From: an uncultured Acidobacteriota bacterium | GTDB taxonomy: Bacteria > Acidobacteriota > Terriglobia > Terriglobales > Acidobacteriaceae | Assembly: GCA_963765015.1 (NCBI GenBank) | Contig: CAVXVD010000073.1 | Coordinates: forward strand, 1,087-65,086 | Reading direction: 5' to 3' | Length of the DNA stretch: 64,000 nucleotides | In this document: piece by piece, positions 7,699 through 46,163 of the stretch | Position numbering within the stretch: the stretch's first letter is position 1 | How the letters are laid out: each line of letters opens with the position of its first letter | Made by a program: the position numbers and the translations under genes | Notes under the pieces: generated by a model | What the model was told of the DNA's origin: nothing | The model's input: only the letters and a program-made list of their open reading frames with translations | Database searches by the model: none

Positions 7699-9298
7699 TC
7701 AGAATAGCCTGACCGCCTTCGCCTGCTGCACCGCTGGAATCAGCCGTAACCGTGCCAGCACTGCCTCCGGCACTTGCCCGTCGACGTGGACAACCGCGAT
7801 CGCCTCGCGCGCCTGTTCCGCTTTTTCGCTACTGCGCCGTCCCAACGAGAAATCAGCAATGTTAATCGATTCTTCCCCGAGAATAGTTCCCACCTTGCCG
7901 ATCACGCCCGGCACGTCGCGGTTCCGCAGGTAAATCAGATTGCGTTCCAGAGGAGCTTCGACGTCAATTCCGTCCACATGCAGCAGACGAGGCGCATCGC
8001 CGTGCAGCACAGCACCCTTTACCATGTGTTCTTCCCTCGCACTCTTCAGAAATATCGAGAGCACGCTCCCCGCTCCGCCGGTGGAAGCTTTCGCCTTGTG
8101 CGATTCCACGACTCGCAGCCCGCGGCTCTCGGCGATGGCGGCTGCATTTACCAGGTTCGCCTTCTCCTCAAGCGCCTGATTCAGAATGCCTTTGATGGCC
8201 GCATTGCGAATCAGTTCCGTCTTCCACTCTGCAATGTGTCCGCCGTAGCGAATTGAAATTTCTTCCAGCGATCCCTCCGACACTTGCGCCAGAAATGCTC
8301 CCATGCGCTCGGCCAGCACAATATAAGGCTGCATCTTCGCGTATTCGTCCGCCGACACCGACGGCACATTCACCGCGTTCTGGATGACTCCGTGCTTCAG
8401 ATACTCCTTCACTTGCTGCGCAATCTGTACCCCGACCGCTTCCTGCGCCTCAAAAGTGGATCCCCCGACATGCGGAGTGAGCAGAACGTTTTCAAGTGCG
8501 GTGAGCGGAGAGTTCTTCAGCGGCTCCTCGACAAAGACATCGAGCGCCGCTGCCCCGACTTGCCCCTGCACCAATGCCCGCGCCAGGTCCGCTTCATTCA
8601 CCAGTTCGCCGCGCGCACAATTCACCAGCCGCACTCCCTTCTTCATCTTCGCGATGGACGCCTCGTTGATCATCCCCGCCGTTTGCGGCGTCAATCCCAC
8701 ATGCAGCGTGATGTAATCCGCCGCGGCATACACCTCCTCGAGCGTTGCCAGACGAATCCCTTGCTCCTTGGCTACCGCCACCGACACGAACGGATCGTGT
8801 CCCATGAGTTCCATCCCAAAGCGCCCGCGCCCGGCGCGCGACTTCCATCCCAACGCGCCCCAGCCCGACAATTCCTAGAGTCTTGGCGCGCAGTTCGGTC
8901 CCCTGGAGAGATTTCTTTTCCCACTTGCCCGCGTGCATGAGTGCATCTGCCCGGCAGAGGTGTCGCGCCATCGCCAACATCATCCCAAGCGTTTGTTCCG
9001 CGACTGCAACCGCGTTGGCCCCGGGGGTGTTCATCACCGCGATGCCCTTATGGGTTGCCGCTTCCAAATCGATATTGTCTACGCCGACTCCCGCGCGCCC
9101 GATTACCCGGAGTTTCTTCGCGTGCTCCAGCAGCTTGGCATCCGCCTGCACGGCCGAGCGCACGATCAGAGCATCTGCTGACTCAAGGAGCTCAGCCAAA
9201 TTGCCGTCGAGTTGATCCGCTGTGAGTACGGTCCACCCCGGCTCCTGCAACTGAGCCACGGCCGACGCGGAAATCTTTTCTGCCACAATGATTTTCAC
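7699..9298 (-). pseudogene. serA: D-3-phosphoglycerate dehydrogenase, frameshifted
   Basis: ORF 8594..9352 carries the N-terminal domain and NAD motif GIVGLGRVG. ORF 7699..8871 carries FGMELMGHDPF..., the catalytic region and a C-terminal ACT-like domain. The frame switches near 8826-8850. GTG start 9298 (VKIIVAEKIS) has AAGGA upstream. Confidence 0.85.
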
Positions 9299-9441
9299 GA
9301 GTGCGTTCCTTTGAATCAGAATCTCTATCCTGAAACGTATGCTGACAACCAATTGACGCGGAAATGACAGCTCCCTGACACGCGCTCCGGCCCGGTTTTC
9401 TAGACTCGCTTCAGTGGGCTCAAGCCCCCCGGAGAAGAAAT

Positions 9442-44000: not shown

Positions 44001-44098
44001 AATACCCTCCCCGAAACCAGCGGAAAATAGCGTGCAACTCCGCTTGCATAACAATACGCATTCGCAGCGGCAATAGTTCCTTCTTGGTGTTTCCGAGG

Positions 44099-44566
44099 CT
44101 ACCCTTTGGCAGATTCCTTCAAATAGGACAAAACCTCTTCGGCATGGCTTTCCGGGTTTACTTTCTCGAAGATATGCTGGATTTTGCCGTCTGGGCCGAT
44201 AATGAAAGTAGTTCGCGCTACACCCCAAACTTTCTTGCCGTACATGTTTTTTTCTTTCATGACCCCGAAGGCCTCAGCCACTTTCTTTTCAGCGTCGGCA
44301 AGCAGCGGAAAGGGCAGATCATACTTCTCCTGGAATTTCTTTTGGGCTTTCGGTGTATCAGGGGAGACGCCAAGCAGCACGGCGCCGGTTTTCTGAATCT
44401 GTTTATATGTGTCGCGGAACCCGCGAGCTTCCACCGTTCAACCCGGGGTATTCGCCCGGGGATAGAAGAAGAGGATGACGGTCTTGCCGCGTAAGTCTTT
44501 CAGTGTCAGCTCTTTTCCATTCTCATCCTGCAAAGTAAACTCAGGAGCCTTATCATTGATCTTCAT
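44099..44566 (-). CDS. bcp: Thiol peroxidase Bcp/PrxQ with in-frame TGA at the peroxidatic Cys position (candidate selenocysteine)
   Basis: ORFs 44438..44656 and 44099..44434 share one frame, separated by TGA (44440-44438) and ACG. Joined sequence: MKINDKAPEF...VILFFYPRANTPG[TGA]TVEARGFRD...FIIGPDGKIQHIF. GGAGA RBS before ATG 44566. Confidence 0.8.
44409..44440 (-). promoter_or_regulatory. Candidate bacterial SECIS element (UGA plus downstream hairpin)
   Basis: mRNA: UGA ACG GUG-[GAAGC]-UCGCGG-GUU-CCGCGA-CAC. A 6-bp GC-rich upper stem, a 3-bp lower stem with a 5-nt bulge, and an apical loop containing GU that starts 18 nt after the UGA. Confidence 0.5.
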
Positions 44567-46163
44567 GGGAATTTCTCCGGAAAAATCGAACTCGAGTGTC
44601 AGGAATGCTGCGACAGTGGCGTACCAGCTATCGTTCTCCAGAATTTTACACCGCAAGATTTTTTCCTGCGGGGCGCCGACTCTCTTCCTACTGGCGAACC
44701 TCGTTGGTTCGTGCGTGACAGTATCGGCCCAGGAAGAGCGGCCGCAGATTACTCCGGGAGAGCGAAAGGTACCGCGTAAGAAAGATGCGGATCCGCGGGC
44801 ACTCGCAGTGCTTCAACTTACGGCAAATGGGAAGGCGTCTCTTGTGCCGCTTGCGATCCTGGTCAACGGAAAGTTCTGGGACGCTTCCGCCTACAAAGCC
44901 GATCCCGTCCCTATGGCGCTGGAGCCGGGGACGGTCTACGAGGCGGAGCGGACCGGCAATTCGGTTGGATTGTTCACGGTAACCAGCGCCTTGCACAGCA
45001 ATGCCATCAATGTACAAGCACCGTGGATCGGGACTGGGGCATGGCATCCGACGGGAACCGAGGGGGTTACCACTACAGAGAAGAAAGCTGAATCGGTTCC
45101 CGTGGGAATCGATACCACGGATGAACCGCCCCGGCTTACGCACGATCCAACCGCCAAACCGAACCCGCCTGCGAACACTCCGGCCTCAACTAGTCCCGCT
45201 TCTTCAATACCGTCCCCGTCAAGCGGACAGCCAGATACAGGGGATGAACCGCCACGTTTGACTAAACCTGCGTCCGCTCCTGCGGGCTCGGCTCAATCCA
45301 CTCCTGCGCCCCAGGCTGCGGGTGATTCGAAACCGAAAGATACCGAGGCGGCCGGTGCCAAGCCGGACCAGCAGGCAAACGTACCCGCCTCCGACAGTGG
45401 TGCCACGGAAGGCAACCGTCCGAGATTGAGGCGCGGAAAGCCAGCGGAGTCCTTTGCTGACGAGGAAGTGCCCGGCTATAGCAAGCCCGGTGCCCCGCTA
45501 AGAATTCCAGCGGACGCCGCGAAGATCATCGAGGCGCCTGCGGCTCAAGGTCCGGTGCAGTTGATCCCCGCGATTTCCGACGCCAACGGCCCCGAGCTTC
45601 GCTCGTTCGTCTTCGATTGGCTCAAGGAAGAGGAAGGCGACCGCCGAAAGCAAATGATGGGGCTGGCAAAGGACCAGCTCCATGCCTATCTGGCCGCGCA
45701 AGCCAAGGCAAGGATCACGCCGAAGCCGGAGCATCCATCTGCTGCTCGGCATGCTCCGGCGGCGAAGCTGCAAGAGCCGATCTTCGAGAACGTGCAGATG
45801 ATCGCCTATGACTTGTGGAAGAACGGTCAGGCGGTAATCGTCTTTAGCGCGGATGCCCACATGCCCCCTCCGCCTGTGGGCACAGCTCATTCCGAGGTCG
45901 ATACGGAGATGCGATATTCCATCGTGCTGGTCGCGTATCCCGACATGTACAACAATCTGCACAAGCTGTATGTGGGAGTCACCGACAAGTATCATCTCGA
46001 TGTCACACCACGCCTTGAATTAATTGATGCGGTGGATGCCGACGGTGACCGGCGTGGAGAGTTGCTCTTCCGCAAGGTGACTGACGCAGGAACTGGCTGG
46101 GTCCTCTATCGCGCAACCGCCGACAAGTTATGGGTGTTGTTTGATAGCTTGAGTCCGGAATAA
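44565..46163 (+). CDS. Hypothetical secreted Pro-rich protein (start uncertain)
   Basis: Long ORF 44475..46163. Signal-like segment HRKIFSCGAPTLFLLANLVGSCVTVSAQ around 44650-44730. Central Pro/Ala/Ser-rich linker with repeated DEPPRL motifs and a conserved-looking C-terminal domain. The 5' part of the ORF overlaps bcp on the other strand. The first in-frame ATG outside most of bcp is 44565, but the true start may be nearer 44650. Confidence 0.5.
   Translation: MGISPEKSNSSVRNAATVAYQLSFSRILHRKIFSCGAPTLFLLANLVGSCVTVSAQEERPQITPGERKVPRKKDADPRALAVLQLTANGKASLVPLAILVNGKFWDASAYKADPVPMALEPGTVYEAERTGNSVGLFTVTSALHSNAINVQAPWIGTGAWHPTGTEGVTTTEKKAESVPVGIDTTDEPPRLTHDPTAKPNPPANTPASTSPASSIPSPSSGQPDTGDEPPRLTKPASAPAGSAQSTPAPQAAGDSKPKDTEAAGAKPDQQANVPASDSGATEGNRPRLRRGKPAESFADEEVPGYSKPGAPLRIPADAAKIIEAPAAQGPVQLIPAISDANGPELRSFVFDWLKEEEGDRRKQMMGLAKDQLHAYLAAQAKARITPKPEHPSAARHAPAAKLQEPIFENVQMIAYDLWKNGQAVIVFSADAHMPPPPVGTAHSEVDTEMRYSIVLVAYPDMYNNLHKLYVGVTDKYHLDVTPRLELIDAVDADGDRRGELLFRKVTDAGTGWVLYRATADKLWVLFDSLSPE

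Follow-up and report, generated by a model that had tools for sequence, protein, structure and literature searches.

We analyzed a stretch of 64,000 nucleotides (nt) from an uncultured member of the Acidobacteriaceae (contig CAVXVD010000073.1, positions 1,087 to 65,086; hereafter the window), in which a gene for a Bcp/PrxQ-type peroxiredoxin carries an in-frame TGA. The gene occupies 44566..44099 on the minus strand and is an intact coding sequence of 155 codons, with the TGA at 44440-44438 as its sole defect. Two open reading frames (ORFs), 44438..44656 and 44099..44434, share one minus-strand frame; the initial annotation of this DNA had described them as separated only by the TGA and one ACG codon, which is what we read and translated directly. 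In the minus-strand translation, 42 sense codons precede the TGA and end with ...VILFFYPRANTPG, while ACG and then a GTG at 44434 follow it, with 112 sense codons in all up to the stop codon TAG at 44101-44099. The GGAGA previously pointed out upstream of ATG 44566 is present at 44578-44574. The features discussed here, some of which involve selenocysteine (Sec, or U in motifs) and the selenocysteine insertion sequence (SECIS; bSECIS for the bacterial model), are as follows.

44099..44566, minus strand: coding sequence (CDS) of a Bcp/PrxQ-type peroxiredoxin, 155 codons including the proposed Sec codon, from ATG 44566 to stop TAG 44101-44099; recognized by Pfam and NCBIfam profiles.
44438..44440, minus strand: in-frame UGA, codon 43, the proposed Sec codon; aligned with the nearly invariant Cys of TPGC, and kept as TGA in relatives.
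44574..44578, minus strand: GGAGA, Shine-Dalgarno-like, ending 7 nt 5' of the ATG; read from the sequence.
44447..44461, minus strand: codons Pro36 to Thr40, belonging to the active-site motif PxxxTxxU; both P36 and T40 are invariant among the aligned sequences.
44213..44215, minus strand: codon of Arg118, 3' of the UGA; R118 is invariant in the alignment.
44412..44426, minus strand: SECIS-like hairpin within the CDS; RNAalifold consensus of 35 TGA sequences, fitting the bSECIS constraints and made of frozen codons.

The identity of the protein was established with profile searches in which Cys was substituted at the TGA in the 155-residue product. It matches Pfam PF00578 (AhpC-TSA) over residues 3-132 with an E-value of 1.4e-43 and 148.2 bits (cut-off 26), and the Bcp equivalog NCBIfam NF006960 (thioredoxin-dependent thiol peroxidase) over residues 2-152 with 162.7 bits (cut-off 140). 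The closest solved structures are the BCP/PrxQ proteins 5enu, 3gkk, and 5iiz, matched over almost the full length at 6e-37 to 6e-33, and the N-terminus, MKINDKAP, agrees with the start of the full-length orthologs in the alignment. When the product was aligned with 19 close homologs, the TGA column coincided with the nearly invariant Cys of the PxxxTxxC/TPGC motif, bearing out the earlier statement that the TGA stands at the peroxidatic-Cys codon. The active-site box reads P36-R-A-N-T40-P-G-[TGA]43, and P36, T40, and R118 are invariant in these 20 sequences; Arg118 we take to be the conserved active-site (catalytic) arginine of peroxiredoxins. The initial annotation had also remarked that the usual resolving Cys is missing (EAR), and indeed the 155-residue product has Arg at position +5 from residue 43 and not a single Cys. 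The resolving Cys that characterizes the atypical 2-Cys subtype of BCP/PrxQ, a feature of the subtype rather than of the family, is thus lacking, and the protein is, judging from its composition, of the 1-Cys(Sec) type.

Could the TGA be nothing more than a nonsense mutation or a base-calling error of TGC or TGT, in which case the gene would be a pseudogene or artefact that carries a hairpin by coincidence? A single third-position change is enough to turn a Cys codon into TGA, and this assembly does contain frame-disrupting errors, e.g. in serA near 8850, as well as indel offsets relative to L002, one of the related loci that we collected (numbered with the prefix L). However, the population of the window has been assembled repeatedly, as L002 (ENA ERZ25039454), L005 (Logan ERR11630400), L006 (ERZ25039529), and L007 (ERZ25039540), and all four loci share the TGA with the window, which makes five assemblies of one population. 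L002 is nearly identical to the window apart from small indels, which indicates that it is a separate assembly, and in L005-L007 the gene agrees with that of the window except at two or three other positions. Since the TGA is a substitution that recurs in five assemblies, it is not an assembly error of the frameshift type that long reads produce. A more distant locus, L001 (protein P0019), shares 88% protein identity with the window product and has TGA at the Cys column, with differences that are mostly at third positions or synonymous.

The TGA is also widespread well beyond this population. We performed a protein-guided scan of one genome per species of the GTDB and examined the 80 best loci, all but two of which are labelled Acidobacteriota; most come from metagenome-assembled genomes (MAGs) of Acidobacteriaceae or Candidatus Sulfotelmatobacter obtained in several independent projects. 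The active-site box could be located in 74 of these 80 loci, and in these closest species-level loci the catalytic codon is TGA in 44, TGC in 28, and TGT in 2, so the alternation of TGA with Cys codons at this column, which had been suggested as a check, is borne out. A scan of metagenomes with the pattern TTYTAYCCN4GCN4ACNCCNGGNTGAAC returned at least 120 loci with TGA, essentially all of them Bcp genes from very diverse lineages, and the downstream frame, mostly of 100-121 codons, is intact wherever the contig spans the end of the gene.

Translation past the TGA has left its mark on the downstream sequence, which shows no sign of decay. All 44 TGA orthologs keep an intact frame of 110-117 codons after the TGA, and all 44 have Arg at +5. 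Comparing the window gene with these orthologs gives a ratio of nonsynonymous to synonymous substitution rates (dN/dS) of 0.057 for the part before the TGA and 0.039 for the part after it (dS above 1.2), and the comparison with the Cys forms gives the same values. The low downstream ratio and the intact frames together argue for purifying selection beyond the TGA as in any translated gene. Recurrence in the 44 species-level TGA orthologs, which stem from independent projects, and in at least 120 metagenome loci, the downstream dN/dS of about 0.04, and the tight linkage of the TGA to the frozen hairpin codons described below all stand against a nonsense mutation or sequencing error, and a shared contaminating sequence is excluded by the divergence of the orthologs (dS > 1). 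We therefore regard a broken or misread Cys codon as extremely unlikely, in spite of a folding energy for the hairpin that is not significant.

TGA serves as the stop codon of 24 of the 61 long non-overlapping ORFs of the window, and we therefore rejected a global reassignment of this codon. A scan of the window for further ORF pairs split by TGA returned only adjacent genes that share a frame by chance, and no second selenoprotein candidate. The other gene disruptions in the window had been described as frameshifts and not in-frame stops, and serA, which encodes D-3-phosphoglycerate dehydrogenase at 7699..9352 on the minus strand, is consistent with this. It is split by a frameshift near 8850-8870, with its N-terminal part in the ORF 8594..9352 and the remainder in the ORF 7699..8871, where the match to the NAD domain starts at profile position 43; the frameshift is probably an indel of the long-read assembly rather than the trace of a real pseudogene.

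The position of a GTG one codon past the TGA raises the possibility of a true split gene, in which ribosomes would terminate at the UGA and start again at GTG 44434 to give peptides of 42 and 111 amino acids (aa), acting separately or in a complex. The 111-aa ORF is indeed among the gene calls, as is the 42-aa ORF in L007. The start is not conserved, however: in the TGA orthologs the corresponding codon is ATC, ATT, GTA, GTC, or GTT (Ile or Val), and no Shine-Dalgarno sequence precedes GTG 44434 in the window. Such an arrangement would moreover lose the catalytic residue itself and leave the strong purifying selection on both halves unexplained, so we give it hardly any credence.

Immediately 3' of the UGA the transcript can form a hairpin inside the CDS. 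Its arms are UCGCGG (44426-44421) and CCGCGA (44417-44412), enclosing a GUU loop (44420-44418); with the U of the UGA numbered 1, positions 15-20 pair with 24-29 and the loop comprises 21-23. The stem thus has 6 base pairs (bp), 5 of them G-C, the loop has 3 nt, and 17 nt lie between the UGA and the loop. In the bSECIS model as quoted in the review PMC13188914, the upper stem has 4-16 bp, and the apical loop measures 3-9 nt, carries a G within its first two positions, and is separated from the UGA by 16-37 nt. We tested sequences against the constraints quoted there with a script of our own, not with bSECISearch, and the hairpin of the window satisfies them. RNAalifold, applied to the window together with 34 distinct TGA orthologs, returned exactly the 6-bp helix with the GUU loop. 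The hairpin of the initial annotation therefore survives in its upper part, UCGCGG-GUU-CCGCGA at 44426..44412 with the loop 18 nt after the UGA; the lower GUG/CAC stem proposed with it (44434-44432 with 44411-44409) was rejected as it is not conserved in relatives.

The hairpin is associated with TGA across the family, another of the checks that had been suggested. A hairpin fitting the bSECIS constraints is found in 39 of 40 unique genome TGA sequences and in 108 of 117 metagenome TGA sequences, compared with 7 of 30 Cys sequences, or 2 of 30 under a stricter hairpin criterion. The underlying codons are frozen: CGC GGG UUC CGC are identical in 39-40 of the 40 distinct genome TGA sequences and the preceding Ala is GCU in 36 of them, whereas synonymous sites in the codons flanking the hairpin vary freely in the TGA forms. 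In the 30 Cys forms the same positions mostly read UGC GAA/GAG UUC/UUU CGC/CGG/CGU, and the Ala is GCC. We also evaluated a rigid 9-bp helix over the 117 diverse metagenome TGA sequences: 64.5% of cells are paired versus 61.3% after shuffling, and the covariation score is 0.193 versus 0.141, a value reached by none of 500 shuffles. In pairing percentage and covariation score this helix beats all slid registers, although it does not in other measures, and GC/AU/CG exchanges occur at two of its inner pairs.

A different arrangement is seen at some other Sec-Bcp loci, including L052, L062, L067, L078, L080, L093, and L115, where the hairpin is placed differently, e.g. GGAUUC-CGUGAU(C)-GAAUCC, with a 6-7-nt loop containing GU a few nt further downstream than the GUU triloop. 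One protein family would thus seem to have two SECIS geometries.

Several observations weigh against a Sec reading and a SECIS role for the hairpin. The covariation is modest over the whole family and almost nil in the close clade, where the pairs do not vary; the modest family-wide signal can be attributed to the different hairpin placed by other clades and to the overlap of the stem with conserved codons. The complementarity of the stem follows in part from the conserved residues (C/R)-(G/E)-F-R, and a 5-bp stem survives in 10 of the 30 Cys forms, the loop in most of them being an AUU devoid of G. The folding energy of the single sequence is no better than that of shuffled sequences: over 66 nt, z is +0.85, and over 36 nt, where z is -1.06, a competing, marginally more stable fold is the one of minimum free energy. 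Because these energies are not significant, the case for the hairpin is a comparative one. The window has no Rfam match at gathering thresholds; between 44000 and 44700 no SECIS family was matched at E <= 10, a result of little weight, as the suitability of the Rfam models for this purpose is unchecked. As for the decoding machinery, ARAGORN found no tRNA in the 64-kb window and, in the window plus 207 loci (about 1 Mb of related loci), 4 tRNAs, none of them tRNA-Sec. A tblastn search of the window and these loci with approximate queries for E. coli SelA, SelB, and SelD yielded no persuasive sel gene, only one weak match to a GTPase domain, at the end of L030.

The L030 match deserves a separate description. 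At 2089-2397 on the minus strand, at the end of a 2.4-kb metagenome contig that also carries a Sec-Bcp gene, lies the G domain of a translational GTPase, with 34% identity over 109 aa to the approximate E. coli SelB sequence. It could be a selB located beside a selenoprotein gene, or any other GTPase.

The conserved TGA, the hairpin, and the purifying selection establish recoding but do not by themselves reveal which residue is inserted. UGA-43 might be read through with a residue other than Sec: Cys could be delivered by a selC*-type tRNA(Sec)-like tRNA-Cys together with SelB, an acidobacterial allo-tRNA with a UCA anticodon could decode the UGA, or Trp could be inserted by near-cognate reading. 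The full-length protein would still be made in such cases and, with Cys inserted, would be an ordinary thiol peroxidase. Candidates for tRNA(Sec)-like opal suppressors have been reported and allo-tRNAs are frequent in Acidobacteria (Mukai et al., PMC5389517), and the window and related loci displayed no Sec machinery. On the other hand, residue 43 is the catalytic one, and activity there requires Cys or Sec; the hairpin is of the SelB type, its loop being small, G-first, and at the canonical distance from the UGA; and the TxxU peroxiredoxins are already accepted as a selenoprotein family. In addition, selC* is described in Firmicutes, Thermodesulfobacteria, Nitrospirae, and Proteobacteria, not in Acidobacteria (PMC5389517), and the window contains no such tRNA. 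Insertion of a residue other than Sec is consequently improbable in our estimation.

Taken together, these data support the selenoprotein interpretation of the initial annotation: very likely, 44566..44099 is one intact gene for a Sec-containing Bcp/PrxQ peroxiredoxin of an uncultured, Acidobacteriaceae/Ca. Sulfotelmatobacter-like bacterium from soil. We propose that the UGA at codon 43 would be recoded during translation, with the hairpin just 3' of it (6-bp stem, GUU loop, 17 nt away) acting as a bacterial SECIS that brings in SelB-GTP with Sec-tRNA(Sec), so that Sec is inserted in place of termination by release factor 2. In the resulting 155-aa product, Sec43 of the PxxxTxxU motif, together with Arg118, would be the peroxidatic residue that reduces H2O2 or organic hydroperoxides and turns into a selenenic acid. 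Given that the protein lacks Cys and that Arg replaces the usual resolving Cys at +5, it would have to be recycled by an external thiol, e.g. thioredoxin or glutaredoxin/low-molecular-weight thiol, which would reduce the selenenic acid directly in a 1-Sec mechanism. SelB dependence, peroxidase chemistry, and the choice of reductant are what we infer from the gene and its relatives.

The relationship between Sec and Cys forms in these bacteria appears to be dynamic in places. Among the 30 Cys sequences, only L128 and L152 retain both EARGFRD and the exact codons of the GUU hairpin, yet have TGC at the catalytic codon (1627-1629 in each); they look like recent Sec-to-Cys conversions with a fossil SECIS. 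In a midpoint-rooted neighbor-joining tree, which is rough and weak, the CxxxxC Cys forms make up one clade nested among the TGA forms, with L128 and L176 basal, a nesting that hints at Sec-to-Cys reversion. Some genomes hold more than one copy of the gene: MAG MFD09671.bin.2.133 has a 2-Cys copy of the Cys type (L137) and a TGA-type copy (L176, a GAG UUU stem variant), and MAG MFD03346.bin.3.25 has two TGA-type copies on different contigs (L182 and L184). This may reflect paralogous Sec and Cys forms in some genomes, or else mixed bins. Of the 117 metagenome Sec forms, 45 keep a Cys at +5, encoded by a UGC that makes a U-G pair in the stem, indicating that the SECIS alone does not force the loss of the resolving Cys.

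These patterns can be assembled into a broader scenario, which we put forward as a tentative and rather doubtful possibility. The housekeeping Bcp of Acidobacteriaceae and Ca. Sulfotelmatobacter might be predominantly a Cys-free 1-Sec enzyme, with its SECIS made from the CGC-GGG codons at the position of the resolving Cys. Gain or retention of Sec would then be coupled to loss of the resolving Cys, and the nested CxxxxC forms would reflect Sec-to-Cys reversion with regain of the resolving Cys. If true, an RNA element and a catalytic mechanism would be co-evolving within one 15-nt stretch, and these soil bacteria, mostly aerobic, would use Sec far more commonly than annotations suggest.

The in-frame TGA has consequences for public data, in which this gene and many like it are mis-annotated. 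The initial annotation had warned that standard gene callers split or truncate the gene, and public protein collections do contain 'peroxiredoxin' fragments of 111-113 aa from such genes, the window gene being represented by a 111-aa fragment. In the JGI gene call of L001 782-1243 (P0019), the in-frame TGA is rendered as Trp ('TPGWTVEARGFRD'), implying that some 'full-length' database entries hide a TGA behind a W. In the ENA record of L002 (8763-9113), the Bcp gene is overlain by a called antisense ORF of 116 aa, corresponding to window 44084..44494 on the plus strand, and neither half of Bcp is called; this antisense call is spurious, owing to the in-frame TGA. Correctly annotated, the gene would give an abundant group of soil Acidobacteria one more selenoprotein and would imply that they decode Sec and require selenium.

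Divergent from the Bcp gene lies a plus-strand ORF of 562 aa (44475..46163) without a Pfam match. Its middle part is rich in Pro, Ala, and Ser, and a segment resembling a signal peptide lies about 60 residues from its start. In its longest form it overlaps the first 92 nt of the Bcp CDS, which suggests that its true start is probably further downstream.

We compared the gene and its product with known systems. Like the E. coli fdhF-type SECIS and the bSECIS model (Zhang & Gladyshev 2005, as presented in PMC13188914), the window hairpin is a stem-loop that lies within the ORF and follows the UGA directly, and its 3-nt loop starting with G then U, its 6-bp upper stem, and its 17-nt distance are all in the range given there. 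In contrast to fdhF, there is no sequence similarity, no bulged U was identified, and no Rfam match was obtained; binding of SelB to the window hairpin is predicted.

Among peroxiredoxins with Sec at the peroxidatic position, PrxU of Eubacterium acidaminophilum is an experimentally characterized example (Sohling et al. 2001, as cited in PMC13188914). The window protein shares this placement of Sec but would belong to another peroxiredoxin subfamily: it scores 55.7 bits against the PrxU profile NF040737 (cut-off 270) and 38.8 bits against the Prx-SUH profile NF045827 (cut-off 298), far below both cut-offs, which places it outside the PrxU and Prx-SUH subfamilies.

With Cys-type BCP/PrxQ proteins (E. 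coli Bcp equivalog NF006960; Xanthomonas campestris PrxQ 3gkk and 5iiz; the BCP-like protein 5enu) the window protein shares a full-length match, the PxxxTxxC box, and the conserved Arg; it differs in the predicted Sec in place of the peroxidatic Cys and in the absence of a resolving Cys. The latter is presumably located at +5 in E. coli Bcp and further downstream in X. campestris PrxQ. Atypical 2-Cys BCPs proceed through an intramolecular disulfide, a route that the window protein, having no resolving Cys, cannot follow.

The closest counterpart is the TxxU family of Sec-peroxiredoxins. The prokaryotic selenoproteome surveys of Zhang & Gladyshev list it under COG1225/PF00578 (PMC1088965, PMC1794560, PMC5029168, PMC13188914). 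COG1225 is one we take to be the Bcp group. The initial annotation was right that the family is not new: these proteins have been described since 2005 as an abundant bacterial selenoprotein family (PMC1088965). A 2006 survey counted 12 Sec-peroxiredoxin genes and five Cys-to-Sec events, and listed 4 selenoproteins in 3 families for Acidobacteria, a support at the level of the lineage only (Zhang et al. 2006, PMC1794560). By 2016 the count was 91 genes in 78 organisms (PMC5029168), and a 2026 review has the entry 'Peroxiredoxin (Prx), PF00578, TxxU' (PMC13188914). Likenesses to this family (COG1225/PF00578) are the AhpC-TSA fold, Sec for the peroxidatic Cys of PxxxTxxC, a bSECIS immediately 3' within the CDS with a small G-containing apical loop, widespread Cys homologs, and repeated exchange of Cys and Sec. 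There is no difference in kind, in a comparison that did not include a direct alignment with the reference WP_011365628.1. What sets the window clade apart is its makeup: uncultured soil Acidobacteriaceae in which Sec forms appear to be in the majority (44 of the 74 closest loci), with Cys-free proteins and Arg at +5.

In summary, the window gene is an ordinary case of well-known recoding, in a family, with a motif, and with a kind of SECIS that have been described for about twenty years, and it opens no new question. Only mildly new are the frequency of Sec forms in the closest Acidobacteriaceae genomes and the tight coupling, throughout the clade, between TGA, the frozen codons of the hairpin, and a Cys-free protein with Arg in place of the resolving Cys.

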